Assembly (NCBI GenBank): GCA_965226795.1
Contig: CBDDDZ010000005.1
Coordinates: 2,272,001-2,336,000 of the forward strand
Direction: 5' to 3'
Source of the DNA: Candidatus Latescibacterota bacterium
Lineage (GTDB): Bacteria; Latescibacterota; UBA2968; GCA-2709665
Length of the DNA: 64,000 bases
The translations under genes were made by a program, and so were the position numbers. Positions 385 through 55,365 of this stretch are shown piece after piece (position 1 is the first letter of the stretch; each line of letters starts with the position of its first letter). The notes beneath the pieces are model-generated. The model was not told the origin of the DNA. It saw only the letters and a list, made by a program, of their open reading frames with translations, and made no database searches.

Positions 385-530
385 TTGTAGCGGTGTGCCG
401 GTCTGCGATCCCGGAACCAGGCTGCTGACCCTGAACCCTGAGCTTGCGGTCCCTGAGCCTGCGGTCCCTGAGCTTGTCGAAGGGTCGAAGGGCAGTCGAA
501 GGGTGTCGAAGCCGGGCACGGGATCTTTTT
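385..530 (-). repeat. degenerate attC-like site containing a nested stack of palindromic elements
   Basis: Ends with GAAGCCGGGCACGG like intact sites (58634-58648); centre has 3-4 nested CCCTGAGC(T/C)TG...TCGAAGGG units. Confidence 0.6.
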
Positions 531-1990: not shown

Positions 1991-2146
1991 GCTGACGTTC
2001 CCGAGCCCCTGCAAAAACCCCGAGCTGGGCCGCTGAGCCTGCGCCCTGAGCCGCTCCCTGAGCTTGTCGAAGGGTCGGCGAAGGGTGACGATGAGTTGCC
2101 GGAGGCCTGGGTGCCGCAGGCGCTTAGTGGTAACTGGTTGTTATAG
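1991..2146 (-). repeat. degenerate attC-like site with nested palindromic insertions
   Basis: GCTGAC...GTTATAG ends; GTTGCCGGAGGCC core; nested CCCTGAGC...CGAAGGG. Confidence 0.6.
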
Positions 2147-2690: not shown

Positions 2691-2842
2691 CTATAACTTC
2701 CCGTCGGTTTGAGAACCCCGAACTCGGCCTTGGTGCCTGCACCCTCAGCCTTGCCCTGAGCTTTTACTCTAAGCCTGTCGGAGAGATGCAGAGGGCGTTG
2801 CCGAAGGCCCATGCGGCGCGCTACAGGAACCGGATGTCATGC
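2691..2842 (-). repeat. degenerate attC-like site with decayed palindromic insertions
   Basis: CTATAAC...GGTTTGAGAACC...GTTGCCGAAGGCC...GTCATGC. Confidence 0.55.
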
Positions 2843-5657: not shown

Positions 5658-5844
5658 GTAAACCATACGGTGTTCCCCGAACCTGTGGCCCGTAGCCCTG
5701 CCCTGAGCCGCTCCCTGAGCCTGTCGAAGGGTCGATGGAGCGAAGGGCTGACGAAGCATGTCGAGCGGATCCGGGACGCCAAAGGGGCCCTTCGACAGGC
5801 TCAGGATAAACTCCGCGACGCAGCGTAACACGGTACTGTCAGAT
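5658..5844 (-). repeat. degenerate attC-like site with two palindromic insertions in opposite orientations
   Basis: Nested CCCTGAGC...CGAAGGG at ~5696-5747, CCCTTCGACAGGCTCAGGATAAACTCC at ~5788-5814, then GCAGCGTAACACGG. Confidence 0.6.
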
Positions 5845-10620: not shown

Positions 10621-10730
10621 TGATAACGTCCCACGGTCTGCGAACACCGACGGGGTTGCCGAAAGTCAAGGCGCCCTTCCACAAGCTCAGAATGAATTCC
10701 GCGCCGGAGCCGGGCACGGTCGTGATAATG
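10621..10730 (-). repeat. attC-like site with one palindromic insertion and a mutated core
   Basis: TGATAAC...GGTTGCCGAAAGTCAAGGCGCC[CTTCCACAAGCTCAGAATGAATTCC]GCGCCGGAGCCGGGCACGGTCGTGATA. Confidence 0.7.
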
Positions 10731-23072: not shown

Positions 23073-23195
23073 GCATAGCGTCCAGCAGGGCTGATGGCCG
23101 GTTTGGGAACCCGCGAAGCGGGTTGCGCAGGCCAGGGCGCCCGTCGGCAAGCGTAGGACAGGCTCCGCGCCGAAGCACAAGAGGACTTGTTATAG
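23073..23195 (-). repeat. attC-like site with a decayed palindromic insertion
   Basis: GAACCCGCGAAGCGGGTTGCGCAGGCCAGGGCGCC[CGTCGGCAAGCGTAGGACAGGCTCC]GCGCC...TGTTATAG. Confidence 0.7.
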
Positions 23196-25615: not shown

Positions 25616-25853
25616 CGTCTCTGTACCTGATTCAGCCGGCTATTTCGGACTACTGACGTTACGTCGATTTCCGAACCCCGCGCTCGGCCGCGGCGCATGC
25701 CCTGAGCCGCTCACATTTGCACAAGTGGATGTAATGGAAGAGGTACGAACCCGAGAGATCGCCAAAAGAAACAACGGGGCGGTCATCACCCCGTTTCGTG
25801 TTTTTTTCCTGATAGGCGTACCAATTTTGCCGTAGACGATGTTGGAAATCAGT

Positions 25854-31862: not shown

Positions 31863-31900
31863 TATGTTTGCTTCCCCCGTCAGGGAAGACCTTGCACTGG

Positions 31901-31985: not shown

Positions 31986-32016
31986 ACCGGCAAAATGGCC
32001 ACTGGCGCTTCCGGGG

Positions 32017-42069: not shown

Positions 42070-42222
42070 TCAGAAGCCCCTCAAGGCGTTAGCCTTGATT
42101 CGTCATATTTCGGCGAAGTTAGTTTGAATTTGCCCAGAAGAACAAAGGCGATTTGACTTTACAATTGGACAATTCTTGAGTTCACCGGATGTGACCGGAG
42201 AATAAGTGCAACCGATTCTCCT

Positions 42223-42762
42223 TCAAGACTCGTCCAGTGATGTTCTCCACTCAGATTCCAAGATGCTCATCTGATAAAGACTCCAGTATTCGTCGCCTAT
42301 CTTGCGACATTCTCTGAAACACCCTTCTTTTACGAAGCCAAGCTTCTCGTAGCATTTGATAGCGGACGTATTGAAGTCAAACACAACCAAATCGATGCGA
42401 TGCAAACCGTACTGATTGAATCCCAGGGCCAGGATTTGCTTCATCATCTGAGTGCCAATTCCTTTCCCTCTATAGGATGGATCGCCAACCAAAACACGGC
42501 AAACTCTCGCACTTTTGTTCTGTAGATCAATGCCGCTAAGTTCAATATGACCAATAACTGAATCGGAAGCGGTATCCACCGACTTGAAAATCTTCCTTTT
42601 AGGCCGATGACCTTCCGACTCCCGAATGTACATTTCAAGCTGTGTTTTATCCAACGGATAAGTAAAGCTCGGACCTCCCCACTGCAATAGAAGCTCCGGA
42701 GAAGGGATCCAATTGATCAGACGTTCAAAATCGTCTCTTGCGAAAGGTTTCAATTCCAGCAC
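42223..42762 (-). CDS. GNAT acetyltransferase, RimJ/RimL family
   Basis: YRGKGIG, LHRIDL.VFDFN.SAIKCYEKLGF. Confidence 0.9.
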   Translation of the reverse strand: MLELKPFARDDFERLINWIPSPELLLQWGGPSFTYPLDKTQLEMYIRESEGHRPKRKIFKSVDTASDSVIGHIELSGIDLQNKSARVCRVLVGDPSYRGKGIGTQMMKQILALGFNQYGLHRIDLVVFDFNTSAIKCYEKLGFVKEGCFRECRKIGDEYWSLYQMSILESEWRTSLDES

Positions 42763-42934
42763 GTCAATATCCTTAACCTGGACTCTCAGAAAACACTCAG
42801 TATGGAGATAATCGCATCTTCAGGACAATCCTCAACGAGAATATCGCCATGATAGCTGGATCGGTGAGGGCAGGGATTGGGGTCTTGTGCGTCATCGGGC
42901 TGGGGTCGTTGGGTTTCGCTCTTGCGCCAGTTTC

Positions 42935-43039
42935 GCAAAACATATCGCCGTGCCCGAAACCGCGGAGCGGTTGGGCGAAGGGTCCTTCGACAGGCTCAGG
43001 ACAAACTCCGGCCCGTAGCCGGGCATGGTCGTGATATAG
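42935..43039 (-). repeat. attC-like site with one palindromic insertion
   Basis: CCGTGCCCG-AAACCGCGGAGCGGTT-GGGCGAAGGGT[CCTTCGACAGGCTCAGGACAAACTCC]GGCCCGTAGC-CGGGCATGG. Confidence 0.75.
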
Positions 43040-43146
43040 GATGTCCGATGCCTTCAATCGTTAATCAGGCCGAAGTCAGGTCGGACCTCACCGCCAAAGT
43101 GACCCTCCTGCTGGTGTGTGCTTGACGGGAAATGGTCGTTGGAGAC

Positions 43147-44355
43147 TCAGGCGCGCATGCGTTCAAGGCAATCCTCATAAGCTTCAAAGCGCTCTCCTTC
43201 GCGTTCCTCGGGATCGACCTTCTTGAGGAACAACGCGCTGCCGGGCTTCTTGCCGGCGAACTCGCGGTGGCTCTTGATGTGTGTCGGGTCCTCACCGCTC
43301 CACTTGACCTCGCCATCCTGCAGATACACGAAGTTCCCTCGGTGTTCCTCTATCATCGCCTGCATGCGATCTCGATAAAAGAGACCCTGCTCGCAAGCCG
43401 TTTCCCTTACCGTGGCCATGATAGCAGGCGGATCTTCCTCTACAGAGTCGAATTCGTTCAAGGGACCCTCGACCTCACTCTTGAAGTCAATTTCGTCGAG
43501 ATTGACCGTTCCGAATCCGCTCTGCGCGGCGACGAGCAGATGGTTGCGGTCGCGACGGAACGGTGGCGTGGGCCAATCGGACGCGGGATCGTGCCCCATC
43601 AGGTGGGCGCCGACGGCATCGGTGGCGATGATCTGGTCGCCCGCGATGAGGGCGTTGCACAGGCGGCCCTCGCCGCCCCACTCACGACCCCATTGACCTG
43701 TCGTGGCGTCGACGATATTGAGACACGGGTTGGTAATGCGCGCCAGATCGGGGAGCACGTAGGACAGCCGGATTGCGTGGTGGAAGTATGTGCGCACGCG
43801 TCCCTCCGGCGGAATCGTGGGTGTGAGGCCAAACAGGTTCTTTGTGCAAAGCGTGACTCCCATGAAGAGGTGGTTCTTCATCTTGGCGACAGAGACGACC
43901 TCATCTGCTTCGCTGAAGCACCGGCTGAGCGTGTAGCGCTGAAACATGCAGCCGCCACCCGGCACGTCATACTCGGCGAAGGGGGGCAGGTTTGACTCCG
44001 CGAACTCAACGTCGAATTCCTCGAGCAGCGGAAGGTAGTTGAAGTAGTCCGTCACGGCCCCGGACGCGTCTCGGCAGAATGTGTCGGCTGCGACAAGCGT
44101 CGCTGAGGTCCGCTCGCGCAGGAGCCGAAGGACGGCGCGGCAGACAGCGTCGTCGACGAGCTCTCGACGGCGGCCCTCGAAATGAATCACATTCGTATGC
44201 CCCATGTTGAACTTGAGAGCGATGCGGCCCGCCTTCCGCAGCTTCTCCCAGGAGCGCTCAAGGGGGGCGGTGGCCCGTACCAGGTTCTCGTAGACCTCCT
44301 CGTCGGAGGCCCGGTGATCGCAATGGACTGCACGAACGCTGAATTCATGGTTCAT
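43147..44355 (-). CDS. DUF362 domain protein
   Basis: LKFN, VVSVAKMKNH...GVTL.TKNLFG, L.IVD, ATDAVGA.LMG. Confidence 0.85.
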   Translation of the reverse strand: MNHEFSVRAVHCDHRASDEEVYENLVRATAPLERSWEKLRKAGRIALKFNMGHTNVIHFEGRRRELVDDAVCRAVLRLLRERTSATLVAADTFCRDASGAVTDYFNYLPLLEEFDVEFAESNLPPFAEYDVPGGGCMFQRYTLSRCFSEADEVVSVAKMKNHLFMGVTLCTKNLFGLTPTIPPEGRVRTYFHHAIRLSYVLPDLARITNPCLNIVDATTGQWGREWGGEGRLCNALIAGDQIIATDAVGAHLMGHDPASDWPTPPFRRDRNHLLVAAQSGFGTVNLDEIDFKSEVEGPLNEFDSVEEDPPAIMATVRETACEQGLFYRDRMQAMIEEHRGNFVYLQDGEVKWSGEDPTHIKSHREFAGKKPGSALFLKKVDPEEREGERFEAYEDCLERMRA

Positions 44356-44588
44356 CTCTATGCTCTCCTCGCGTAAACGGCGGTTCTGGAGTGGACCCAT
44401 CATACGATGGGACGCCCGAGCGGGTCAACAGGCTGGGATGAAAAACGAGGCTGAATGGGAGCGTGCCTCATTTGAGGCAGAACTGGTGAACGCTCGGAAT
44501 ATGATAGCCACGTCTCCTATTCCAGCCAAGCAATAAAGTCCGCTGGAAAACGGCGTTGACGAAGCGGCTTTTCGTCAACGCCGCCAAA

Positions 44589-45298
44589 TCAGTCTTTGAT
44601 TTCGTCCCGAACACAACGGAATCCCAGATTGCCCGACCCACCTTTCAAACGCACACCCCCCCGTCGGGAGCATCTCTTATGAAACGGGCTGGAATACCAG
44701 TCGCGCCTCCCCGCGCCGACCGCGTTTCACCTCCCAGGGGGCCTACGAGATGGTGTCTGCGGTCATTGGAATAGAGTCTCCTGTCATCTCTGCACCATTG
44801 CTACAAGGAGCCAACCATGTCGTAAAGACCATACCCGTTTGGTGGAAACATGCCGACGTCCGGAGGGCCTTCTTCTTTCTTGCGATCTGCCGCTTGGGTT
44901 CCATTGAATGCATCGTCACCCCACGGATACAGCATGTTGACCAGCCCTCCTCGGGCTGCCTTCTCCCATTCAGCCTCTGTGGGTAGCTTTTTTCCCGCCC
45001 AATCACAATATTCAAGAACATCTGACAATGATATACTCCTTACAGGCTGCAGGGGGGCATTCAGCCAACGGTCCTGCCAGGTCTCAGGGCGATAGTCTGC
45101 TGCCTGCATGAATCTGTGATACTGCTCTACGGAAACCAGATGGGTATCGATCGTGTATGCTTCCAGATTGACTATGTGCTGGGGCTTCTCTTCAAGGAAG
45201 GCTCCGGTGTAGCCCATATCATCGTCATTTACAGCGCCCATCAAGAATTCCCCGGATGGTATCAGTACCATTTCGGGAACGTCGTTCCAGATGCACAT
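44589..45298 (-). pseudogene. formylglycine-generating enzyme (SUMF1) family, nonsense codon plus frameshift
   Basis: LPTEAEWEKAARGG, PPNGYGLYDMVGSL*QWC, RGG, GFRCVR in a shifted frame. Confidence 0.85.
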
Positions 45299-45467
45299 GC
45301 CTGTTTCTCCCTCTTTCTACTTACATTTCTTCATCGTGTGTGCCCGGATTTTTCATTGGGTTCAAAGGTTCCACCGGGCGCCTGGATCCCTTCATTCGGA
45401 GATCCGGGCTGCGTGAAGACAAGCAGCCGGTTTCAATGAGTGATGTAGGCGTAATTACGATGACGTG

Positions 45468-46193
45468 TTAAGTGAAGTGTGTCCAGTCCAATTGTTCGAG
45501 GATTGGCTTTAGGTCAAGCAAGGATCGGATTACGATTCCCGAACTCACATCCACGTGACCGATTCGGTCGATGAGCACGGGAATCATTCTTGCCCGTTTC
45601 GCCCCTATAACGTCCCACTTTGGATTGTCACCGACGAACAGGCACTCCTCTGGTTTGCATCCGAAATGATCCAATGCGCGGCGAAACATAGGTTGGGCCG
45701 GCTTCCGCCACCCCACATCCGAACAAAAGATAGCCAACTCGCATCGCGTCAAAAGACCGTGTCGCCCCAGTTCTTCAAACCAGGGCTCGCTCGGTGCACC
45801 CCAGGGACAGTTCGATAGGATTCCTATGCGGCAACCATCCGCCAGGTGCGTATCCAGAGCCGGAAGGGTGTCTTCATAGATCTCAGCAATAGAAAAGATC
45901 GGACCGAGGAAGGCACGGCAGATAGGCAGCCACTCTTCCTCAGTGACGCAGCTTGCGACGGAAAAAATACGACCAAGCCTTTCGTGGAGTGGGCGGACGC
46001 GACTGTTCCTGGCTTCGTAGTTCTCAGCCGCGACACCACGCTCGATCTCGGAATCCGAAGGTAAGTCGTGTCCTGAGCGCTCCAGTGCCTCTTTGGCTGC
46101 CTGAATTCCTGCCCGTAGCAGTGGAGGAAACGCATCCAGGCGATAGTACCGGACAAGGGTGTCGCCAAGGTCAAACAACAGAACTGGTCTCAA
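45468..46193 (-). CDS. HAD family hydrolase
   Basis: FDLGDTL, LSN, RKP, FVGDN..WD. Confidence 0.88.
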   Translation of the reverse strand: MRPVLLFDLGDTLVRYYRLDAFPPLLRAGIQAAKEALERSGHDLPSDSEIERGVAAENYEARNSRVRPLHERLGRIFSVASCVTEEEWLPICRAFLGPIFSIAEIYEDTLPALDTHLADGCRIGILSNCPWGAPSEPWFEELGRHGLLTRCELAIFCSDVGWRKPAQPMFRRALDHFGCKPEECLFVGDNPKWDVIGAKRARMIPVLIDRIGHVDVSSGIVIRSLLDLKPILEQLDWTHFT

Positions 46194-46227
46194 ACCCGAA
46201 AATCCTTCTCGCCTATTTATGCATTTC

Positions 46228-46375
46228 TCTTAACGTTTCCGCCACTTGCGAACCCACCAAAGCGTCGGGAAGGTGGGTTGCCGGCAGGCCATGGATCCCC
46301 TCCGCGAGCTCATGATAAACCCTTCGGCAGGCTCAGGACAGGCTCCGCGTCGCAGCACAAACCGCGCTGTTACTC
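46228..46375 (-). repeat. attC site with tandem palindromic insertions
   Basis: TCTTAAC...GCGAACCCACC...GGTGGGTTGCC...[CCTCCGCGAGCTCATGATAAAC][CCTTCGGCAGGCTCAGGACAGGCTCC]...GTTACTC. Confidence 0.8.
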
Positions 46376-46466
46376 GATGTGGGATATGACTTCCGCTCAA
46401 GCATTGCCGGGGTTTCCCTTCGACGCTTCGGTTCACTCAGAAAGACACCACACGCGAGATTCAGGC

Positions 46467-47072
46467 CTACGACTTCAGTCCATTGGCATGAGAAAATGCG
46501 GCAACTTCGGCCGATGATCCAAGACGTATGAACTGTATGTGCTTCCAACGGGGCTCTGACATGCAGGTTCGCATGTTCCGACGTTTACGCCTATGCTGCG
46601 TAACAATCCACCACACGAGAGAGCCTTCCTTGTTCCAAACCTTCAGTGTGGGCCAAAACCGTTCATGGTTGGTGCCCCAAAGCAGTTCCTTTGACCGCCA
46701 GCGTCGCCACGATCGCGATAGTACGCGGCAGACGAGCCGGTACATGGGAAAATCCAGCCAAACCACCGTTTCCAATCGCGGCCAAAAAACACGTTGCGAA
46801 AAACTCATATATGAACCAGCGACAACCCATCCGTCACGATCAGTCGCCTTCACTATGAGACCCTCAAACTCCTCCGGATTTGTTTCGTTTAACCCCACCC
46901 AGCCGGGTCGCCAATTGAGTGCATCCAACTCCACAAACGGGACCTGAAGGGCAGTCGCCAACTGTTTGCCCAGAGTACTCTTTCCAGAGCAACTATTGCC
47001 AACCACATGGACCCGCCGACCAATCTGGTGCTTCGGAGGACCGAGTCTAACTCGTCGATGTCCCATTACCAT
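46467..47072 (-). CDS. adenylate kinase-like P-loop protein (FlaR/topology modulation-like)
   Basis: GNSCSGKST, ELD.L.W.PGW, VVWLD. Confidence 0.82.
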   Translation of the reverse strand: MVMGHRRVRLGPPKHQIGRRVHVVGNSCSGKSTLGKQLATALQVPFVELDALNWRPGWVGLNETNPEEFEGLIVKATDRDGWVVAGSYMSFSQRVFWPRLETVVWLDFPMYRLVCRVLSRSWRRWRSKELLWGTNHERFWPTLKVWNKEGSLVWWIVTQHRRKRRNMRTCMSEPRWKHIQFIRLGSSAEVAAFSHANGLKS

Positions 47073-47075
47073 GTC

Positions 47076-47250
47076 GCGTAACGTTTTGCCGGTGTTCGAA
47101 TCGGCCTTTATATGCCGCTAACGGCGGGAGAGCGCGAAGTAGCCGCGCATTACAAAAAGAGATTGGTGGTTTTCACAATTGGCCAAACCCATCAGTCGTG
47201 GCCACGTGGGGGTGTTGGGTAAGGAGAGATCGTGCACACATTGTTATGTG
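47076..47250 (-). repeat. degenerate attC-like site(s)
   Basis: GCGTAAC start and GTTATGT end, each complementary to the far end of the adjoining cassette. Confidence 0.55.
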
Positions 47251-47329
47251 CTGCTGGCGCGCCCGCTTCACGGCGAAGCCTTTCACGGGGCTAAAATACA
47301 ATGCACGCCATCGATGTCTACCTACACCT

Positions 47330-48055
47330 CTATCGCTGGCACCACAGATAGGTCGATCCACCCCTTGTCACCTCGTACTTCCCTCTCTGGAATACATCAG
47401 TCAGAGCGGCAGTTGGATCTGAGATCGATCGCGGATTATGGCCATTGTATATCTCGGTTAGCTTCAGATCAAGCAGAGGTCTATATCGCTCTTTCATCTC
47501 GGATTCGGGAACCACACGTGGCATGTACAGCCTAATGCCATCCGCCTGCATCCAAAACTTCGGCTTGTATCCTGCGAAACCGCCTGGATCCGTCTGGCCA
47601 TAGATCGTGTCACCACTAAACAGGAGTCTCTTTCGCCCCGTGTTCCACAGAAACCACATCTCACCATCCTCATGACCTGGGGCAATGGCCACTATACCTC
47701 CAGGCAGTTCGCCCTCCGTGAATGTCCGATTCGCAGACTTCCGGGCTCGTGAAGGGCTAAGACTTGAGACAAGGACGGGGGCCTTGACCTGGTTCCCGAA
47801 CCATCTCGCATCCCGGTCATGATTCGGGCAGGTTGTCACCACAGCTACAACCTCATCAACCAATCCCCTCAGATAGTCGAGGCCTTCCGGTGGGAGCCTC
47901 ACTGGATCGATCGCTATCCCTCCCTTGTCAGTTATCAAAAAATAGGACTGACGGAGATCGTTGTTCCCTCACCAGGTAGTCCATCGGATCACGCGTGGTC
48001 GCGTTGGGGTTCCCACGGCGCATTCGATTTTGGTGCCAATCTTTATGAAGTCCAT
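47330..48055 (-). pseudogene. metallo-beta-lactamase-fold-like protein with an in-frame TGA at 47969-47971
   Basis: IAIDP, T..NHDR, PGH, LFSGD, GH. Confidence 0.65.
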
Positions 48056-48221
48056 ATAATATCCAATGAATTTCGCCACGAACAATCCCTAAGGGGCACT
48101 TGAGCAATGGGGATCGCTGTCAAATGACGCTTGCTATAAAGGCATTCGCCTGGTCGAGGTGCTTTGTGTTTTTCGTGCACGATTTACCGGGATGGGGTGT
48201 CTGAGTTCATGCGCCAGTTGC

Positions 48222-48315
48222 ACATAACGTCTAGCAGATTGCCGAACTCGCCCAAGGCGAGTTGCCGAAGGCCAAGGCGCCATCGGCGCCGCAGCGCAAC
48301 ACCGTTCTGTTACAG
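48222..48315 (-). repeat. attC site (empty counterpart of 51241-51370)
   Basis: ACATAAC...GAACTCGCC..GGCGAGTTGCCGAAGGCCAAGGCGCC-ATCG-GCGCCGCAGCGCAACACCG...GTTACAG. Confidence 0.85.
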
Positions 48316-48328
48316 GACGTGTGGTCTG

Positions 48329-48769
48329 CTACTGGAGCGCGTCCATCGACTCAATCAGCAAGTCGATCTTATCGTCGTAATTGGCAACGAGCTTTGGAAG
48401 TGCTCTGACATTGGCCCAGAAAAAATCGAACGGGATTCTCACAGATCCGTCCTCCGCCAACTCTCCTTGCCTCCAGGTGTCCCTGGGTCGTCCTCCCACA
48501 GATAGGTGATAGAACCAACGGTACTGTAATTCATCCACCCCGCAATCCCTCATGTCGCGAGTGTCTTGCGCCAGAAACTTCTCGTATTTGAGTTCCGTCA
48601 AGCCCGTCTCCTCCCTTGCTTCCCGCATCACAGCATCTTCGGGACTCTCTCCCGGTTCAATCGTTCCGGCCGGAACCTGAATACCCGCTTCCGGCGACTC
48701 CGGGTGAGTAAAGAGGAGCAGACGGTTTCCGTTGGTTATATAGGCGTAAGCTCTGTGACGAATCTTCAT
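48329..48769 (-). CDS. NUDIX hydrolase
   Basis: PAGTIEPGESPEDAVMREAREETG; paralog at 51384-51824. Confidence 0.9.
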   Translation of the reverse strand: MKIRHRAYAYITNGNRLLLFTHPESPEAGIQVPAGTIEPGESPEDAVMREAREETGLTELKYEKFLAQDTRDMRDCGVDELQYRWFYHLSVGGRPRDTWRQGELAEDGSVRIPFDFFWANVRALPKLVANYDDKIDLLIESMDALQ

Positions 48770-48810
48770 CATAGTGTGGGGGAATATGGAAATTCCGTGT
48801 CTCACATGTC

Positions 48811-48902
48811 CTCTAACGTCTGTCTGTCCCCGAACCGCGAAGCGGGTTGCCCGTAGGCCACGCTGCCTGAAAAGCGGCGTAGCGCAAGTGGACGTGTTAG
48901 CA
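48811..48902 (-). repeat. attC site
   Basis: CTCTAAC...GAACCGCGAAGCGGGTTGCCCGTAGGCC...GTAGCGCAAGTGGACGTGTTAGCA. Confidence 0.85.
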
Positions 48903-48954
48903 GCCGTCGTGCCCTGAAGCGTCAATAAGATCCGGAAGTTTATCACTCGATAAT

Positions 48955-49593
48955 TCACTCCAATCGAAGCGCTCTAACGAGATCGTGGAAAGAATCGTAA
49001 ACCTCACAGTCCACGCTGGCAAATCGAAACCTATCTTGGTGTCCTTGGAGAACGGCAACTGGACGGCAGCCCACGGCGCTCGCTACCTCAACATCATGGT
49101 CAGTGTCGCCTATGAAAAGTGTCACGGATGGATCAAGATCGAAGTCTGCTATCAGGTCGCGACATCTCTGCTCCTTCGACGTAGCCAATCGATCAGAAAG
49201 CCCGTACACACCCTTGAAACGTCCCTGAACTCCCAGCATATGAACCCAGGACACGAGCATCTCTTCCTCAGCAGCCGACAACACGAACTGATCAATTCCA
49301 TATTCTCCCAGGTACTCCAAAGCCTCCGTGATTCCCGGATTGAATGAACAACATCCAATACCGGACTGGTACACCTTATGAAATTCATCAGAAATGTCGC
49401 AATGTTCCTCTCTGACCAGATCGAATCCCAAATGACGATAGTAATCAGATACGGGGAACTGAAAGATCCGTCTATGTGTTGCGCTGTCTATTGTCGGGAG
49501 ACTCCTCTTGCGCAACAGTTCATTCATCGAATTTGCTGCCCATTCTAGATCATTTAAGATGGTTCCGTTGAAGTCCCAAATGACTGATTTCAT
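48955..49593 (-). CDS. HAD family hydrolase (phosphoglycolate phosphatase-like)
   Basis: IWDFNGT, LSA, K, FIGDTDHD. Confidence 0.88.
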   Translation of the reverse strand: MKSVIWDFNGTILNDLEWAANSMNELLRKRSLPTIDSATHRRIFQFPVSDYYRHLGFDLVREEHCDISDEFHKVYQSGIGCCSFNPGITEALEYLGEYGIDQFVLSAAEEEMLVSWVHMLGVQGRFKGVYGLSDRLATSKEQRCRDLIADFDLDPSVTLFIGDTDHDVEVASAVGCRPVAVLQGHQDRFRFASVDCEVYDSFHDLVRALRLE

Positions 49594-49654
49594 GATTTTC
49601 TCACGAAAAACCAAGATCTGTAATGGGGCCGCAGAAACGTAGGAGCACGATGGC

Positions 49655-49735
49655 TGCTAACGTTTCAGCCGTTCCCGAACCGAGCAGCGGATGCTCGAGG
49701 GCGAGAGCCCGAGCGGGGCTACGAGCGTGTTATCT
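49655..49735 (-). repeat. attC site
   Basis: TGCTAAC...CGAGCA..TGCTCG-AGGGCGAGAGCCC-GAGC...GTGTTATCT. Confidence 0.8.
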
Positions 49736-49761
49736 GCCGTGCGCGATACAGAATCGCCCAT

Positions 49762-50454
49762 TCACGGCTTAACAAGCTCAATGACGATGAGGAATGGAAC
49801 ATTATGCCATCTACTCCGAAGATTATCGGGGGCGTCCATATTGGGAGGGAGATCCACCAATGTGCGGAGCAGCAAGCCATTTTCTCGGAAAGCGTCGATA
49901 TACTCAGTCATCGTTCTATGATAGTAATACACCTCAACGCCCGCATTGGCCATTCCCCGGTAAAGCACAGAGGTTCCAGACTCGAAGTAGCTTGAGGCTT
50001 TCTCCCGAAATACCGCGGAATATGGGTTGTTTAGCGAGAAAACCATCCGCCCACCTCGCTGCGTAACCGATGCAAGAGTTCGAATGAACCCTTTGTAATC
50101 TGGCACATCATTGAGTCCATAGTTGCTGACAGCAAAGTCGAACCGGCTCTCGAAGTCAGGTAGCGGCTGGCTAAGATCAGCTACTCGAAAATCGATCTGC
50201 CCTTCAGGGTCCTTGCCCCTACCGATTTCGACCATCGGCTCCGAAATGTCAATCGCGGTTACCTTCGCACCACGAGTATTCAAAACACGTGCCGCGAATC
50301 CCTCCCCACACCCAGCGTCAAGCACATACAACCCTTCCACCTCACCGATAAGATCGAAGATCAGCTTTGAGTCCCCTTCGAGGACGTTCTCATCTCGAGA
50401 GCCGCATAATACAGAATATTCTTGGGCAAACTGGTCGTAGGTATTGCGTTCCAT
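49762..50454 (-). CDS. class I SAM-dependent methyltransferase
   Basis: VLDAGCGEG, AIDIS, FDFAVS. Confidence 0.9.
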   Translation of the reverse strand: MERNTYDQFAQEYSVLCGSRDENVLEGDSKLIFDLIGEVEGLYVLDAGCGEGFAARVLNTRGAKVTAIDISEPMVEIGRGKDPEGQIDFRVADLSQPLPDFESRFDFAVSNYGLNDVPDYKGFIRTLASVTQRGGRMVFSLNNPYSAVFREKASSYFESGTSVLYRGMANAGVEVYYYHRTMTEYIDAFRENGLLLRTLVDLPPNMDAPDNLRSRWHNVPFLIVIELVKP

Positions 50455-50499
50455 TTATTGGATCTCAAGCTAACGAAGGGTATCACTTACATGCATGGC

Positions 50500-50585
50500 G
50501 GATAACGTTTCAGTGCTCCTGAACCGGCGCAGCGGGTTGCAACGAAGGCACGTCAGCGCCGAAGCCGGACACGAACGTGTTATGA
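50500..50585 (-). repeat. attC site
   Basis: GGATAAC...GAACC...GGTTGC...GAAGCCGGACAC...GTGTTATGA. Confidence 0.82.
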
Positions 50586-50646
50586 GAAGTGCGTCCAAGA
50601 TTCAATTGCCCGGCTCTCGAAGTGACGGAGCGGCACGGATTGGCGA

Positions 50647-51219
50647 TCATCGCGCCCAGCATGACGACCGAGCTGCACATGCTCGAACCAACCTCCGTGC
50701 TTCTCTCGGGGAACCGAGCCTGATCACCTTTAGATGCCCTGCCTCACCGTGAACCATGTCCCAATAGTGTCGTCTAAGTTGTGGGTGCTGTCGAAACAGA
50801 AACAAGAAGATGGACCTCTTGCTAAAAAATTGCCTGTAAAATGACTCACGGTTTCCAGCCCACAGCTCTTTTCGAGTAACGGTGCGGATGACCGTTCGCC
50901 GTAGGAGCCTCAGCAGGCATACGGGGAGTGAATAGTCCAGCCACACAAGGGTGGTTGTCCGCGGAAGCTGGATCTCTCGAAATTTTCCGTAGTTCCCGTC
51001 CGACACCCAGCGGTCCGCAGCCATGGCCTTGACTATGCGGTGCTTGACAACCTCGTAATTGCCGGGCGTCCAATTCGATTCCCAACAATGCGAGTCGAGA
51101 TCGAGATATGCCGCGCCCACGTTCCGAGCGAGCGATTTTGCGAACCTGGTTTTTCCGCTACCTGCCGGACCAACAACGGCGACGCGCAAATCTTCATCTG
51201 TTAGAGCGGAATCACCCAC
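50647..51219 (-). CDS. adenylate kinase-like P-loop protein
   Basis: GPAGSGKT, DLD, WVSDGNY, VWLD. Confidence 0.82.
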   Translation of the reverse strand: MGDSALTDEDLRVAVVGPAGSGKTRFAKSLARNVGAAYLDLDSHCWESNWTPGNYEVVKHRIVKAMAADRWVSDGNYGKFREIQLPRTTTLVWLDYSLPVCLLRLLRRTVIRTVTRKELWAGNRESFYRQFFSKRSIFLFLFRQHPQLRRHYWDMVHGEAGHLKVIRLGSPREARRLVRACAARSSCWAR

Positions 51220-51240
51220 ACGCTATCTCTCAAGCATTTC

Positions 51241-51370
51241 TCATAACGATTCGCCAGTTTGCGAACCCCCGAAGAGGGTTGCCGAAGGCGAAGGCGCCCT
51301 TCGACAAGCTCAGGATAAACCCTTCGGCAGGCTCGGCTCCGCGCCGCAGCGCAACACCGTGCCGTTATAG
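51241..51370 (-). repeat. attC site with palindromic insertions
   Basis: TCATAAC...AAGGCGCC[CTTCGACAAGCTCAGGATAAACCCTTCGGCAGGCTCGGCTCC]GCGCCGCAGCGCAACACCG...GTTATAG. Confidence 0.85.
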
Positions 51371-51383
51371 GACGTGTGGTCTG

Positions 51384-51824
51384 CTACTGGAGCATGTCCA
51401 TCGACTCAATTAGCAAGTCGATCTTATCGTCGTAATTGGCAACCAGCTTTGGAAGTGCTCTGACATTGGCCCAGAAAAAATCGAACGGAATTCTCACGGA
51501 TCCGTCCTCCGCCAACTCTCCATGCCTCCAGGTGTCCCTGGGCCGTCCCCCCACAGATAGGTGATAGAACCAACGGTACTGTAATTCATCCTCCCCGCAA
51601 TCCCGCATGTCGCGGGTATCCTGGGCCAGAAACCGTTCACATCTGAGCTCGGCTAAACCCGTCTCCTCTTTTGCTTCCCGCATCACCGCATCCCGAGGAT
51701 TCTCTCCGGGCTCAATCGTCCCCGATGGAACTTGAATGCCGGCTTCCTGCGCGCCGGGTTGAGTAAAGAGGAGCAGGCGGCTCCCGTTCGTGATATAGGC
51801 GTAAGCTCTACGGCGGGTCTTCAT
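51384..51824 (-). CDS. NUDIX hydrolase (paralog of 48329-48769)
   Basis: Same 441-bp length; near-identical C-terminal half. Confidence 0.9.
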   Translation of the reverse strand: MKTRRRAYAYITNGSRLLLFTQPGAQEAGIQVPSGTIEPGENPRDAVMREAKEETGLAELRCERFLAQDTRDMRDCGEDELQYRWFYHLSVGGRPRDTWRHGELAEDGSVRIPFDFFWANVRALPKLVANYDDKIDLLIESMDMLQ

Positions 51825-51868
51825 TCCAATCGATCCTGTTATTGATACACACCGGTGCCATGTATCTC

Positions 51869-51947
51869 CGATAGCATTTCCGTGCCACCAACCGCGTAGC
51901 GGTTGCACGAAGGGCGCAAGCCCGAAGCCGGAGGCGCGTTGTTAGAG
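51869..51947 (-). repeat. attC site
   Basis: CGATAGC...AACCGCGTAGCGGTT-GCACGAAGGGCGCAAGCCC-GAAGC...GTTAGAG. Confidence 0.8.
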
Positions 51948-51959
51948 GCTGTGCACGAC

Positions 51960-52538
51960 TCAGATTTCCCAGTTCGACACATATGATCGGCTCTTGAGTC
52001 GCTCCGCAAGCTCAATCAGTACAGATAACGACTTGTTTAACCTGGCTGTAGTTGCGTCGTCGAGTTCGCCTCCCGCATCCCAATTACCGTCGTGGGCATA
52101 CACATTATACGGGCTGACAATGCACTTGAAATCCAGCATAAGAGACGTTGCCAGCGACGCAAACGCCATATAGCTGTGCGGCAAGCCACCCGAATTGACA
52201 AACATCACTACCTTGTCATAGAAAGCGCCTCTGAGCGATACGCCTGGTGGCGTAGAGCCTATATATTCGACAAATTTCTTGAGCTCGGAGCAACACGCCC
52301 AGTTGTATACTGGACTTGCCAATATTACCGCATCAGATGCCGCAATAATCCTGTGGCACGATTGGTACACCTCGGATGAATAGATCTCGTCGTCGTCGAA
52401 ATTTGGCGGATCAAATTGCCGAAGATCGATGAAATCAACGGAAATGCCCTTGTCCTCCAGGGCGGTCCGACACATGGCAGCAAGCACCCTGCTGTGACTA
52501 TTGGCATTGAGACTGCTGCTGACGACTGAAATCCTCAT
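51960..52538 (-). CDS. NAD(P)H-dependent FMN reductase (flavodoxin-like)
   Basis: SSL...SHS, ASPVYNW...ELK, K..M..NSGG. Confidence 0.88.
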   Translation of the reverse strand: MRISVVSSSLNANSHSRVLAAMCRTALEDKGISVDFIDLRQFDPPNFDDDEIYSSEVYQSCHRIIAASDAVILASPVYNWACCSELKKFVEYIGSTPPGVSLRGAFYDKVVMFVNSGGLPHSYMAFASLATSLMLDFKCIVSPYNVYAHDGNWDAGGELDDATTARLNKSLSVLIELAERLKSRSYVSNWEI

Positions 52539-52575
52539 CTGAAACTTTCTTCCAGATCGGCCCGCTTCGCATGGC

Positions 52576-52671
52576 CTCTAACGTTTTCCGGTTTGCGAAC
52601 CGCGAGCTTGGAGAGGGGTTGCCGCAGGCCAAGGCGCCAAAGGCGCCGCAGCGCAAACCGCGCTGTTATCC
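52576..52671 (-). repeat. attC site (well-paired example)
   Basis: CTCTAAC...CGGTTTGCG-AACC...GGTT-GCCGCAGGC-CAA-GGCGCCAAAGGCGCC-GCAG-CGCAAACCG...GTTATCC. Confidence 0.88.
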
Positions 52672-52685
52672 GACGTGAAAACAAC

Positions 52686-53459
52686 CTATGTGAGTATGTT
52701 TCGAAGCGCACCTAACGACGAAATAATCTGTACGCCATCCATACATGCTGTGCTGGAACCTGGCTCAGTTTCCGAATTCTCGCTGCCAAAATCCCTTGCG
52801 GCCGGCTCGGTGCCCTTGCCTTTCCTATCAATCAGAATTGGAGTCATTCCAATTGCTTTAGCCCCTACGATGTCGTCCTCAATAGAATCGCCAATGAACG
52901 CAACGTCCTCTGCTGCCATTCCAATCTTGTCCAGCGCCAGGGAGAAGATCCCTGGATCGGGTTTTTTTGTACCTACCTCTCCCGATACTACAACAGCATC
53001 GAAATACTGTCTGAGTCCCAGTTGCGCGAGTCGAGTGTGTACATGGGGTGGATGATCGAAATTCGTGATTAGGGCTATTCGATGCGAGCCCCTCAAATCA
53101 TTCAGTAGGCTTTGGGCTTGAGGATCGGGAAAGGTGTGCCGTGACCAAGAGTGTACACTGCTTTCCGAAATATCTGACATCTCTCGCGCTGTAAATTCGA
53201 CTCCAAGCTGTTCTCCCAAAGCCCCAATACGTCGCTCATACGGCGTTAGGCCTTTGGCGCCATCCATAGGTGGTTCCGGTTTGCTGAAAAATCCAGTGCA
53301 GATTGTTCGAAGGCGGCCTTTCTCGACTTTCACCCCAAATTCCTTCAGTGAATCACGGATGGAGTCAAACCACTCTTCCCAAGCCAATTTCATGTCCCCG
53401 TAAACAAGGATCGTACCATAAAGGTCAAAGAAAAGACCACTAAATCTGTGCGTTTTCAT
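52686..53459 (-). CDS. HAD family hydrolase
   Basis: FDLYGT, ITN, KKPDPGIF, FIGDSIEDD. Confidence 0.9.
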   Translation of the reverse strand: MKTHRFSGLFFDLYGTILVYGDMKLAWEEWFDSIRDSLKEFGVKVEKGRLRTICTGFFSKPEPPMDGAKGLTPYERRIGALGEQLGVEFTAREMSDISESSVHSWSRHTFPDPQAQSLLNDLRGSHRIALITNFDHPPHVHTRLAQLGLRQYFDAVVVSGEVGTKKPDPGIFSLALDKIGMAAEDVAFIGDSIEDDIVGAKAIGMTPILIDRKGKGTEPAARDFGSENSETEPGSSTACMDGVQIISSLGALRNILT

Positions 53460-53887: not shown

Positions 53888-54910
53888 TCAGAGTAGAATG
53901 TCCGGTGGCAGATCCTCGGTTTTCGGTTTGTTGATCCAAACGGCGTCAGGTAAGTCCGGCGGTGTGGGCAGGCCTCTCACAAACCGTTCCGGATGTGCCG
54001 CGTAGGCCGCTGTCAACACGCGCTGACGATGTGCGTGAACCTTTGGTGCGTGTCCATAGTGTACCGTTGCAGGTGTCATCAATCCCAATCCCGTGTGATG
54101 ATGCTCAAAGTTGTACCACGAAAAGAAGCGGCGTGCCCAGCCTCTGACATCTTCGGGACAGCCAAAGCGATCCGGATAATCCGGTCGATACTTCATCGTT
54201 TTGTATTGCGCCTCTGAATAGGGATTGTCATTGGGCACGTGCGGTCTGGCGTGAGATTTGGTCACGCCCAGATCCGACAGCAACAGGGCGAGACTTTTGG
54301 CGATCATCGGACCGCCGCGGTCTGAATGAATGGTCAACTGCTGCGGATCCACCTCCTGATTTCGGCAACTTTGCTGGATCAATTCTGTAGCCAGGGCAGC
54401 CGACTCTCGCCTGGTCACCATCCAGCCCACGACAAATCGGCTGAAGATGTCCAGCAGCACATATAGATAGAAGTAGGTCCATTTGACCGGTCCTCTCAAT
54501 TTGGTGATATCCCAACTCCACAGTTGGTTGGGACCTTGCGCCAGCAGTTCCGGCTTCTTGTAGGTGGGGTGGGAAAGCTGGTTGCGTCGTTCACGCACCT
54601 GGTCGTTTGCCTCGAGGATACGATACATCGAGCGCCAGGAGCACAGATACGTGCCTTCATCAAGCAACTGTGCCCATACCTGGCGGGGTGCGGCATCCTG
54701 GAACCGTCCGCTGTTGAGTACATCCAGGACGTGTGCGCGTTCCCGCTTCTCCAATGCACGTGACGGCGTCGGTCGCTTTTTGGACAAGCTTTGTCCCGGG
54801 TCTTGCCGTGTCCTTCGGTGGCGGTAAACACTGGATCGAGGTACACCCAACACCTGACAGGCACGGCCTACGCCTACGTCTATGGCCAAATGCTCAGCTG
54901 TCTGTCTCAT
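53888..54910 (-). CDS. IS3 family transposase OrfB (DDE)
   Basis: PNQLWSWDIT, HSDRG, DNPYSEAQYKT.K. Confidence 0.93.
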   Translation of the reverse strand: MRQTAEHLAIDVGVGRACQVLGVPRSSVYRHRRTRQDPGQSLSKKRPTPSRALEKRERAHVLDVLNSGRFQDAAPRQVWAQLLDEGTYLCSWRSMYRILEANDQVRERRNQLSHPTYKKPELLAQGPNQLWSWDITKLRGPVKWTYFYLYVLLDIFSRFVVGWMVTRRESAALATELIQQSCRNQEVDPQQLTIHSDRGGPMIAKSLALLLSDLGVTKSHARPHVPNDNPYSEAQYKTMKYRPDYPDRFGCPEDVRGWARRFFSWYNFEHHHTGLGLMTPATVHYGHAPKVHAHRQRVLTAAYAAHPERFVRGLPTPPDLPDAVWINKPKTEDLPPDILL

Positions 54911-55365
54911 GTGCCGTCGGCCTTCTCGGTATTGTCGTTGCCCAGCCCAAGCAGATCCGAAAGTTTTTTTTGGACGTCGATGATGACTTCGGCTTGCGCC
55001 AGCTTTTTGGCAAGCCGCTCATTTTCAACGCGCAACCGGGCAAGCTCTCTTTCTGACGGATCCGCACCAGGACGGCCACGCTTCTTCGTTCCCAATTCCC
55101 CGGCTTCCCGCTGCCGTCGCCATTGGGCCAGACTGGAAGAATACAACCCTTCACTGCGCAAGAGGGCTCCGATCTGTCCGGGCTGGGTACACGCATCAGC
55201 CTGCTTCAGAATGCGCAGCTTATAGGTCTTGGTGAACCGTCGTCGCTTCGCCTTCAGCACCACCTCAGGATCCGCCACTTGATCCGCGCTGGCTGAAACC
55301 GACGGCTCCACTCCCGCTGCTTTCGCCCCGTTTTGGGACGACGTCTTTGCTCCTGTATCCATCAT
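54907..55365 (-). CDS. IS3 family transposase OrfA (HTH plus leucine zipper)
   Basis: RRRFT..YKLRIL...GLYSS.L..WR; ATGA overlap with orfB. Confidence 0.9.
   Translation of the reverse strand: MMDTGAKTSSQNGAKAAGVEPSVSASADQVADPEVVLKAKRRRFTKTYKLRILKQADACTQPGQIGALLRSEGLYSSSLAQWRRQREAGELGTKKRGRPGADPSERELARLRVENERLAKKLAQAEVIIDVQKKLSDLLGLGNDNTEKADGT

Follow-up and report, generated by a model that had tools for sequence, protein, structure and literature searches.

The attC site downstream of one NUDIX cassette in this Latescibacterota contig carries a short repeat in a hairpin loop, and the attC of its paralogue lacks it, which raises the question of what the repeat is, where it goes and what moves it. 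An earlier note on this DNA had proposed a palindromic parasite of attC loops, mobilised in trans. The proposal was followed up in the window, i.e., the whole stretch of 64,000 nucleotides, in the Latescibacterota genome (G000), in its relatives and across other taxa. Both loops quoted in that note, at 48274-48295 and 51291-51350, are present as it described them.

The repeated unit and the attC sites that carry it

The short unit is real, but where about 20 nt had been claimed it measures 23 nt, with fixed ends and TCC after it. In its general form it is a hairpin of 23/24 nt with fixed ends, and its element strand consists of a G-YYTR tag, a 3-nt stem and TGAGC-N3/4-YCGAA. The tags seen were GCCTG, GCTTG, GCGGT, GTGGT, GTTTA and similar ones. 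The sequence CCTTCGRCARGCTCAGG, with at most two mismatches allowed, has 9 matches in the window (0.05 expected). The unit is not a Watson-Crick palindrome as had been thought: ViennaRNA gave no stable fold for it, and only an outer stem of 3-4 bp covaries, around an invariant core. At 23 nt it carries no ORF. A single weak Rfam match was obtained (AaHKsRNA41, E 0.58), and no description of the unit, its peptides or UPF0213-linked repeats was found in the accessible papers searched. In the following list hp1 and hp3 denote the first and the third mini-hairpin of an attC.

420..512, plus strand: resident-type units in a nested stack, within an attC-like remnant that keeps a right arm of the second subtype
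2017..2100 (approximate), plus strand: resident-type units in a nested stack, within hp1 of attC 1990-2144
2715..2800 (approximate), plus strand: degenerate nested stack in hp1 of attC 2691-2839
5678..5770 (approximate), plus strand: resident-type units in a nested stack, within hp1 of the decayed attC that also holds the next unit
5789..5814, minus strand: unit and TCC in hp3 of the decayed attC
10675..10700, minus strand: degenerate unit and TCC in hp3 of attC 10621-10729
23141..23166, minus strand: degenerate unit and TCC in hp3 of attC 23091-23195
25652..25715, plus strand: attC left half whose hp1 holds a truncated nested stack
42984..43009, minus strand: unit and TCC in hp3 of attC 42935-43039 (second attC subtype)
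46298..46346, minus strand: tandem units (46298-46320, a degenerate/intact pair with 46321-46343) and TCC in hp3 of attC 46228-46375
48222..48315, plus strand: NUDIX-A cassette attC; its hp3 (48276-48290) is without unit and has an ATC loop, possibly a deletion remnant
48329..48958, minus strand: NUDIX-A cassette ORF, sister of NUDIX-B (87.7% amino acid identity, 100/100 support)
51241..51370, plus strand: NUDIX-B cassette attC, hp3 filled; its bottom strand is the plus strand
51298..51320, minus strand: mobile 23-nt unit with a GTTTA tag and a TCC stem, located in hp3 of the NUDIX-B attC
51321..51337, minus strand: second, tandem unit with a 6-nt deletion, in the same tandem order as at 46298-46343
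51338..51340, plus strand: TCC triplet, which together with the unit replaces a GNA(N) loop
51384..51908, minus strand: NUDIX-B cassette gene (PF00293)

Altogether 12 of 49 attC-like sites are occupied, in two different loops (hp1 and hp3), and each filled hp3 site ends in TCC ahead of the right arm. The units reported earlier at the equivalent loop were all recovered in hp3, at 5789-5811, 10675-10697, 23141-23163 (degenerate), 42984-43006 and 46298-46343. The earlier account does not hold for the copies at 467, 2057 and 5714, which lie on the opposite strand, in nested stacks within attC-like sites, with hp1 filled at 2057 and 5714. The host sites have R'' and R' core boxes and lie downstream of single-gene cassettes in one orientation; an integrase candidate (C5:2359978-2360754, TIGR02249 at 205 bits with a cut-off of 265) is on the cassette strand. 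Occupancy of sites distal and proximal to the integrase was compared by a rank test, replacing a Fisher test on a post-hoc boundary. The same tandem filled architecture sits on two unrelated cassettes, in agreement with the earlier suggestion that the unit spreads with cassettes. Altered attC folding through the unit is possible; no effect was demonstrable at distal sites when folding with and without the unit was compared, a comparison that could not reveal one because L boxes there are already poor (0-6 bottom-strand pairs, whether the site is filled or empty, as against about 9 at proximal sites).

Empty and filled alleles do coexist, at one orthologous attC in relatives and in a MITE family. 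This attC is empty, of the GGAGC-GAAC-GCGAC type, in four relatives (G009, G011, G014 and G004), filled in G010 and re-inserted in G002 and G012. Cassettes homologous to the one with attC 23091-23195 show empty, filled and nested states in relatives, and the orthologue of attC 10621-10729 is filled in G013 (L033). The two NUDIX attC sites are paralogues with different left halves. The ATCG site of NUDIX-A, presented as the empty allele, is probably not a pre-insertion loop, and may be a remnant. Nor do the empty loops follow the proposed CTTCG/CGAAG target; on the bottom strand of attC they read GNA or GNAN. That the unit entered, by clean insertion, a TCC loop already present was rejected, as none of the empty attC sites, whether catalogued or from relatives, has such a loop, and the GCGAC arm was discarded as the mark of one founder event, since it belongs to the empty sites. 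For the cassettes at 2155, 5939 and 43147 a search for orthologues yielded no empty attC suited to comparison. In contigs of runs X1, X9, X11 and X2, which drop rare variants, no 23-nt gain or loss over 42000-53000 was seen among the rows listed.

Copies and junctions in the genome and across taxa

The genome-wide mapping proposed in the note gave 154 exact-core copies in G000, at 100 loci. With this copy number, and with the empty and filled alleles in the MITE family and at the orthologous attC, its description of a non-autonomous REP-like unit is borne out. By a motif rule 33 of the 100 loci are dimer-like. The unit is present in about 20 phylum-level groups, where its hosts are other repeats, a MITE, the unit itself and some genes. 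That it avoids genes is nearly true in G000, where two of the 154 copies lie deep inside long ORFs (28/154 overlap crude ORFs of at least 100 aa), but does not extend to other genomes, in which in-frame copies occur within genes; PHROGs provided a name for none of six proteins with in-frame inserts. Of the 45 G-YYTR copies in G000, 41 are preceded by T, and the remaining four, all in attC, are the only ones with a TCC stem. G-YYTR copies number 63 and 65 in G042 and G044. The core is abundant in two cyanobacterial genomes, G046 and G047 (132 and 54 matches), and is nested in a Nostoc flagelliforme plasmid, while the N. punctiforme plasmid pNPUN01 gave no core matches.

Unit ends and junction bases were defined on 156 junctions from viral contigs and five genomes. 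Two outcomes were recognised: either the unit is inserted cleanly before a purine, any duplication being limited to one G, or the unit plus TCC takes the place of a GNA-type loop on the opposite strand. The base adjoining the unit tracks the donor stem, being T in 31/66 junctions of AGGA type versus 2/86 of AGGG type (p 1e-11). Matching empty alleles were found for 42 of the 125 TCCG-class junctions, against a search background of 12-20/125, with C+GNA as the commonest loop (19) and C+TCC in two; other junctions had one in 27/137, ten being clean insertions. When the triplet was left free in a viral scan, TCC appeared in 11 of 20 matches (9 distinct), which were the ones in repeat context, and TTC, TGC and TAC did not appear. 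Unit and loop in same-strand arrangement gave 0 matches. Inversion of the loop, i.e., GNA turned into its own reverse complement, was rejected, as the triplet is TCC irrespective of the loop. When viral sequences were scanned for the left junction in SRM-like repeats, 16 matches were obtained, none with the unit directly after. The hairpin-loop preference that the note had suggested for testing is seen in G000, where 38/154 junctions lie in a look-alike hairpin versus 0.39% of random positions. Across taxa 15 of 152 junctions are in a loop closed by at least 6 bp (2.1 expected) and 8/152 in a look-alike hairpin on the same strand; many targets thus have no evident hairpin structure.

Two readings centred on attC itself have to be weighed against these distributions. 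That the unit is an attC-directed parasite, perhaps aided by the integron integrase, as first proposed, would suit the 12 filled sites and their two loops, and the attC-subtype pattern has matches in 5/14 relatives, where 10 of 11 copies are in attC context. We nevertheless regard it as highly unlikely. Only 7 of the 100 loci in G000 are attC and 93 lie elsewhere, subtype and junction recur in other repeats in about 20 phylum-level groups, the insertions sit in terminal loops and not at the G|TT crossover, and a crude heuristic, which also missed the known decayed attC L106, detected no credible attC at 269 junctions from other taxa. Still more improbable is a filled state ancestral to the attC family, with empty loops arising by loss. 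The nested allele of G002 does branch outside the empty ones in one cassette-family tree, and the ATCG allele resembles the start of the filled allele in G008. The cassette gene tree does not polarise empty and filled states; a single clade of filled and nested alleles is rejected (p-AU 3e-44), all 21 catalogued attC sites nearer the integrase are empty, only 2 of 16 NUDIX homologues are filled at hp3, and the unit ends are identical in unrelated repeats. The best reading is that attC is a recurrent but non-exclusive target.

A candidate GIY-YIG partner and its alternatives

Among the classes of trans-acting enzyme named earlier, GIY-YIG has a counterpart in relatives, where the hairpin borders a UPF0213-type gene. 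In G005 and G012 the gene encodes 101-103 aa and in G009 it is frameshifted; in all three it has the unit on both sides. The proteins are single-domain (L004, 101 aa; L005, 103 aa; PF01541). Among 72 distinct metagenomic relatives, 42 have the core within 700 nt of the gene (0.9 expected), 19 of them on both sides, and 30 have no core nearby. The 3-nt-loop unit of G000 occurs in 7, 4 and 3 copies around the UPF0213-type genes at L004, L005 and L013. Copies beside the nuclease mostly have CGGT-type tags, unlike the G-YYTR tag of solitary inserts. Four nuclease loci had no Rfam match. The closest solved proteins are UPF0213 (1zg2, 1ywl), and in the tree the nuclease clade (93/94) is separate from Ssn-like proteins (94/89); solved relatives and tree together point to a predicted nuclease outside the cd10448 clade. 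One unit-flanked GIY-YIG, L435, falls outside this clade. In G000 no GIY-YIG gene was detected by HMM, motif scan or tblastn, an uninformative absence because the xerD-kinase-uvrC region, where relatives carry the gene, is missing from the assembly.

We give an even chance to the reading that the unit is a fixed-end, non-autonomous hairpin of 23/24 nt, copied into look-alike single-stranded hairpins after a cut in trans by the predicted UPF0213-type GIY-YIG nuclease. The core would fold with tandem G.A pairs and a bulged pyrimidine, and the nuclease would bind it as single-stranded DNA and make its cut there or close by, just as SsnA cleaves on the 5' side of its hairpin. At the foot of a donor hairpin 1-3 bases of the target 3' end would then anneal, and copying would run across the hairpin as far as the tag. 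GIY-YIG enzymes hydrolyse DNA and to our knowledge have no strand-transfer step, hence the copying step is inferred. The attC sites would be hit because mini-hairpins of GNA(N) and G.A type make up their variable terminal structure in this lineage. A subtype foreign to the rest of the genome may have filled hp3 on three or more arm backgrounds, the filled hp3 then travelling with attC copies, and hp1 may have grown through nesting of the resident subtype. A bolder version, possible but held only tentatively, is that a UPF0213-type GIY-YIG of about 100 residues drives a minimal homing system, cutting single-stranded mini-hairpins that resemble its own binding site, and that repair then leaves a 23-nt copy of this site in the break. 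The copying model does not account for the origin of the invariant TCC.

Other movers would leave the same unit in the same targets. The mobiliser could be an Ssn-type (cd10448-like) nuclease, or either GIY-YIG clade, which we think unlikely. The enzyme link is not unique, because Ssn-like genes in the same genus (L007, L011) also have flanking repeats, which share the core and have a TGTCATT tag and a 4-nt loop, and many TCC-class insertions lie within such repeats; moreover, the small GIY-YIGs of the copy-rich G042 and G044 are Ssn-like, with no UPF0213 type among the matches listed. Against this, the 3-nt-loop unit is absent or rare around most Ssn-like genes (a viral control search for such loci gave two fragments), and the published SRM pattern overlaps 0/154 copies and 0/72 flanks, with sensitivity limited because it also misses an SRM-looking repeat at L006. 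Spread by RNA-templated or plain microhomology gene conversion, with the nuclease gene a passenger or serving a separate restriction function, is distinctly unlikely in our view. Such a model is said to have been proposed for cyanobacterial SDR repeats, and it would suit the replacement of whole blocks seen at orthologous positions, namely the unit tail that differs between G000 and G013 in 97%-identical surroundings and the near-identical genes of G010 and G012 that yet differ by a nested unit; the invariant TCC, too, fits copying from filled donors. It does not account for the tight linkage of the hairpin to one nuclease clade, and ends that stay constant in unrelated targets, coding sequence among them, require a cut that sets them. 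Peel-and-paste mobilisation of a REP by an HUH/RAYT (Y1) transposase is improbable: the tag-plus-hairpin layout, the REPIN-like dimers and three Y1_Tnp matches in G000 speak for it, but all three 3-kb windows around these matches are free of copies, the GTAG tag is absent, the flanked gene in relatives is a GIY-YIG, and the flanking 5' base differs between lineages.

Relation to known repeats and mobile elements

The closest parallel to a nuclease-linked hairpin is the Ssn system with its NTS/SRM repeats (Chenal et al., 2025; PMC11893778), in which GIY-YIG nucleases of cd10448 are described, mobility is raised as a hypothesis and SsnA cuts single-stranded DNA a few bases 5' of its hairpin. Both have a single-domain GIY-YIG of about 100 aa flanked by oriented tag-plus-hairpin repeats dispersed in high copy. 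They differ in that the present nuclease is of a UPF0213-like branch and its hairpin is not matched by the SRM pattern; the solitary 23/24-nt unit with empty and filled sites, nesting and junction rules has no counterpart in the available sections of that paper (PMC11893778).

In REP, BIME and REPIN families short tagged extragenic hairpins, dimers and high copy number recur (PMC3116915, PMC3733652), and some REP families sit inside small palindromes (PMC3116915, PMC3733652). The present unit differs from REP/REPIN-RAYT systems in having no GTAG/CGTC tag, a 3-4-bp stem, a non-canonical core, a single hairpin and no linked RAYT. CGTC-tagged REPs have a CGTC/TGTC tag and a stem of 8-9 bp, here replaced by other tags and the shorter stem, and their survey found no dedicated transposase (PMC3733652). 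Transport of bacterial repeats of 20-30 nt without RAYT is an open question, to which this case contributes a candidate enzyme with intact genes in G005 and G012, natural donors and targets, two sharply defined predictions for the junctions and an attC series with empty, filled and nested orthologues. The question of mobility thereby becomes a direct assay. The case may also give a function to the UPF0213 branch of GIY-YIG proteins and a new specificity of single-strand nucleases, and, if the homing reading is true, mobility to GIY-YIG-linked repeats that lack a transposase.

SDR1-8 of Nostoc and relatives, from the 2008 work of Elhai et al., are reportedly mobile repeats of 21-27 nt without target duplication, said to insert also inside genes and other repeats, to be restricted to cyanobacteria and to have no assigned enzyme. 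The present unit resembles them in size, in mobility and in the lack of target duplication, and differs from these reported features by its range of about 20 phylum-level groups, its candidate nuclease and its attC targets. Since the core is abundant in G046 and G047 and nested in the N. flagelliforme plasmid, the unit may be one of the SDR families. The nuclease would then, on the homing reading, be the missing enzyme of very small cyanobacterial elements of SDR type.

For integrons, the unit illustrates the growth of attC terminal loops and possibly the way in which old cassettes become immobile; with homing, older cassettes would be locked in place via attC refolding. Group IIC-attC introns insert at TTGT/T near R'' (PMC7923331) and, like IS1111-attC elements, are kilobase-sized mobile DNA in attC that encodes its own enzyme. 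Lodging in attC sites is shared with them, but the present 23-nt unit has no coding capacity, goes into terminal loops and shows no specificity for attC. In-frame insertion in protein-coding genes recalls the Rickettsia palindromic elements (PMC3733652); these are longer or of SRM/CGTC type, while the present unit adds 7-8 residues, and homing, if true, would be a source of protein insertions of this size.

Hairpin units in the attC sites of the array

The studied genome (G000; 5.41 Mb in 5 contigs, 95.9% complete) carries a long minus-strand cassette array, a section of which is the window (C5:2272001-2336000), with one gene per cassette (NUDIX, GNAT, methyltransferases, HAD and others). On the same contig, C5:2359978-2360754 (-) holds an integrase-like gene that shares the strand of the cassettes and scores 205 bits against TIGR02249, below the cut-off of 265. 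Sites of this attC family have up to three mini-hairpins, hp1 to hp3, in their terminal structure; the bottom strand of the sites is the + strand. The earlier note had quoted two loops from the attC sites of paralogous NUDIX cassettes, an ATCG loop (NUDIX-A, 48222-48315) and one filled with the 23/24-nt hairpin unit (NUDIX-B, 51241-51370), and both were recovered at these places. Its unit pattern matched nine times in the window, with 0.05 matches expected. At every hp3 site in the window, TCC and then the right arm come after the unit.

Copies of the unit in and near the window
5789: unit in hp3
10675: unit in hp3
23141: unit in hp3
42984: unit in hp3
46298 and 46321: units in hp3
51298 and 51321: units in hp3
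C5:2209682: seventh hp3 unit site
467: unit on the opposite strand, in a nested stack
2057: unit on the opposite strand, in a nested stack
5714: unit on the opposite strand, in a nested stack
about 2715: further nested stack
about 25700: further nested stack
C5:2258715: further nested stack

Most of the nested stacks, i.e., units within units, were found in hp1. The unit was present in 12 of 49 attC-like sites of the array. These 49 were curated by hand, partial and weak sites among them, and some sites close to the integrase are probably missing from the set. Compared with empty sites, filled ones were situated farther from the integrase (rank test, p 0.0012), and none of the 21 sites listed beyond 51.4 kb was filled. 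In hp3, at least three arm backgrounds were filled, always by replacement of the loop with the unit and TCC. Empty loops were mostly GNA or GNAN, and no TCC loop was found in empty attC sites of G000 and its relatives. The hp1 loops of empty sites were often look-alike hairpins and, when filled, held the resident unit subtype. In silico, the insert at 51298 paired with the adjacent GAAGG hairpin, and the L box was unformed with or without the insert. Two filled attC sites were located far outside the main arrays, in the congeneric genomes G008 (L035, G008:C1:2048718) and G013 (L029, G013:C1:1653015).

Several other features of the array were recorded. A second integrase-like fragment lies at C5:2342071-2342307. 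Aminoglycoside 3-N-acetyltransferase domains (PF02522) occur in two cassettes and a phosphotransferase (PF01636) in one (window 24110-25615, 31050-32039, 7321-8382). An IS3-family-like transposase pair (rve, HTH_Tnp_1) is present at 53888-55365, sigma-70 and ankyrin-repeat genes run against the array strand at 11446-13051 (+), and the DUF362 gene at 43147-44403 has a partial second copy, 91% identical, at about 40520-41160. Inserts unrelated to the unit were found between the CCTGCC/GGCAGG arms of hp1 (11252-11393, 57714-57799 and G000:C5:2357849), and another repeat family forms purine/pyrimidine-tract hairpins of the CCCCTCTCC...GGAGAGGGG type (29735-29790, 29945-29990).

Anatomy, distribution and junctions of the unit

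Read along the element strand, the unit opens with a tag (G-YYTR, or else GCGGT, GTGGT and the like), which leads into a stem arm of 3 nt, TGAGC, three or four variable positions, YCGAA and finally 2-3 bases from the second arm. Near nuclease genes the outer stem covaried (CCC/GGG 34, GCC/GGC 14, GGC/GCC 14, CAT/ATG 14, GGT/ACC 13). Standard DNA parameters gave no stable fold of the unit; since the invariant GA and GA oppose each other, established DNA structure suggests a core of predicted tandem sheared G.A pairs with a bulged pyrimidine.

Mapping of the core TGAGC(C/T)TGTCGAA in G000 gave 154 exact copies in 100 loci, which motif rules assigned to REPIN-like dimers (33), a single MITE family or its immediate flanks (31), attC sites (7), a different repeat family (6) and other places (23). 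The idea of a REP-like unit, mobilised in trans into attC hairpin loops, holds in outline, the unit being a real feature, whereas attC is only one among many targets. Twenty-eight copies overlapped ORFs of at least 100 aa (crude calls), and two lay deep inside long ones. At two positions, the MITE family had alleles with the unit as well as alleles without it. Its members (e.g., G000 C5:50980-51160 and C3:353280-353490) are about 80-210 nt long with ends GTTCTGTCCCGGAAATAG and GAATGGTGACATATTT, and number about 40 copies, including internally deleted forms.

Exact copies of a 15-nt core numbered 32-106 in each of the other 14 genomes of the genus, and mostly 0-2 in 26 more distant relatives (10-26 in three). 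The attC-type subtype with a TCCG junction was found at no fewer than 119 loci in GTDB genomes, most of them within other repeats; 80 listed loci represented about 20 phylum-level groups. A crude test, which also missed the decayed attC of L106, revealed no credible attC among 269 junctions of GTDB and viral loci. In genes, in-frame copies were found at seven loci (L077, L260, L178, L269, L169, L258, L267), translated as PSTGSGQA, PSAALRTGS or LRQGSGQA. In three viral-contig genes homologous to each other the copy occupied the identical place, and the repeat protein of L077 provided an internal control, with eight residues added by the unit. At L119:320-429 (-), a 5S rRNA gene (RF00001, 69 bits) has the unit with TCC close to its 3' end.

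The mobility signature and the junctions could be read directly. Viral contigs and five genomes supplied 156 junctions. Directly 3' of the unit, as read on the element strand, 122 of them had G, 33 had A and one had another base; the 5' base was mostly A (75). The 3' base tracked the donor stem (31/66 vs 2/86, p 1e-11) and is therefore brought or selected by the element. Two outcomes were distinguished. Clean insertion was seen in 10 of the 27 non-TCCG junctions having a findable empty allele (137 examined). For loop replacement, an empty allele was located for 42 of 125 TCCG junctions, mostly picked by a pattern requiring TCCG, where 12-20 chance finds were expected; C+GNA was the commonest empty loop at 19 of the 42 junctions, the unit's own short loop at 7 and C+TCC at 2. 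When the triplet was left free in a viral scan, TCC was found in 11 of 20 hits (9 distinct), and the remaining nine were without repeat context. Empty loops of the repeat concerned were GTA (6), GGA (5), GCA (4), GAA (3) and other (2), and a search for the unit in same-strand arrangement there found none.

The preference for hairpin loops, proposed in the earlier note, was borne out in G000, where 38 of 154 junctions fell in look-alike hairpins compared to 0.39% of random positions. Across taxa the bias is weaker: loops closed by at least 6 bp held 15 of 152 junctions (2.1 expected), loops closed by 5 bp held 18 (7.3 expected), and 3-4 bp gave no excess.

History of filled and empty attC sites

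The NUDIX cassette at 23269 has relatives with an empty attC of the GGAGC-GAAC-GCGAC type in G009, G011, G014 and, twice, in G004, with a filled attC in G010, and with another 23-nt unit nested inside the filled attC in G002 and G012. A single clade of filled and nested members was rejected (p-AU 3e-44), but the gene tree of this family gave no polarity of empty and filled states, and attC sites appear to have been exchanged between cassettes. The NUDIX-A and NUDIX-B genes are sisters (100/100), and hp3 was filled in 2 of 16 NUDIX homologues. One filled allele of G008 starts with GGCGCCATTCG, so the ATCG allele may, judging from the sequence, be a deletion remnant. The tandem order of units is common to 46298-46343 and 51298-51337, on unrelated cassettes; filled alleles are therefore also copied. 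A T precedes 41 of the 45 G-YYTR copies in G000, and the remaining four, all in attC, are the sole ones with a TCC stem; the hp3 subtype is hence foreign to the remainder of the genome. It was found in 5 of 14 relatives, with 10 of its 11 copies there in attC context.

A candidate nuclease and a proposed mode of spread

Genes flanked by arrays of the unit, which the earlier note had proposed to look for, do exist: arrays of the hairpin border a small GIY-YIG gene on both sides in G005 (L004:1489-1794) and in G012, and likewise a frameshifted gene of this kind in G009. No GIY-YIG gene was matched in G000, the assembly of which lacks the xerD, kinase and uvrC region where G005, G008, G009 and G012 carry small GIY-YIG genes. 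PF01541 matches were found in 13 of 15 genus genomes, many being UvrC. The unit-flanked protein has at least 2682 relatives, the solved ones being UPF0213 proteins. In 42 of 72 metagenomic loci (the distinct ones among the best 80) the core was present within 700 nt of the nuclease gene, with 0.9 expected: on both sides in 19, on one in 23 and on neither in 30. This gene linkage is a direct observation. In a tree of 33 proteins (15 from the 72 loci and 18 others), the UPF0213-type clade (93/94) was separate from Ssn-like proteins (94/89), while one unit-flanked GIY-YIG protein, from L435, was placed outside the UPF0213-type clade.

Folding, cleavage and copying are the steps we infer. A nuclease acting in trans would cut single-stranded DNA at or near hairpins resembling its own site, the 3' end of the target would anneal via 1-3 bases to the foot of a hairpin in the donor and copy across, and copying would end at the tag, which, if SsnA is a guide, would be where the donor is cut. 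Such cutting and copying, to which we give about an even chance, would account for the fixed ends, the covarying 3' base, the absence of duplication and the nesting. Copying of filled donors, bounded by short homologies of the stem, would be the best reading of the invariant TCC.

An Ssn-type enzyme as mobiliser is unlikely. Two findings nevertheless speak against an exclusive role of the UPF0213 type: in the genus, repeats sharing the unit core, with a 4-nt loop, border Ssn-like genes, and neither of two acidobacterial genomes with many G-YYTR copies yielded a UPF0213-type match. Gene conversion without a nuclease seems somewhat less probable still. We consider mobilisation by RAYT very improbable, as none of the three Y1 hits in G000 had a unit nearby, and the same low probability applies to a parasite directed to attC, since just 7 of the 100 loci are attC sites. 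That the filled state is ancestral in attC is the most doubtful proposal.

According to sections of PMC11893778, Ssn cleaves ssDNA near SRM hairpins and mobility was merely hypothesised. Passages of PMC3733652 report that no transposase was found for CGTC repeats and that REPs were noted within small palindromes, and IIC-attC introns are described in part of PMC7923331. Our literature search found no account of the unit in attC or of UPF0213-linked repeats, and the supplements of PMC11893778 may list similar repeats. The present analysis contributes a link from the solitary inserts to the nuclease clade, as well as two junction rules and a series of orthologous attC sites; in combination, these open the mechanism to testing.

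Quite possibly, the unit is itself a family of the cyanobacterial small dispersed repeats (SDR). Two cyanobacterial genomes have its core in abundance and a Nostoc plasmid has it in nested form, but plasmid pNPUN01 has none. The SDR study of Elhai et al. (2008) is cited in passages of PMC3116915 and PMC3184786.

The published SRM pattern did not match the TGTCATT/TGTCATC-tagged repeats which flank Ssn-like GIY-YIG genes at L007, L008, L009, L011, L012, L017 and L018. The Y1_Tnp domains of G000 are located at C2:154196, 164316 and 170050, two of them within open frames of about 1200 aa. Finally, the consensus ends of RF02901 (AaHKsRNA41), an Aggregatibacter 'sRNA', carry the unit hairpin as an inverted pair, so this family may be a repeat dimer; a related match lies at window 5713-5806.
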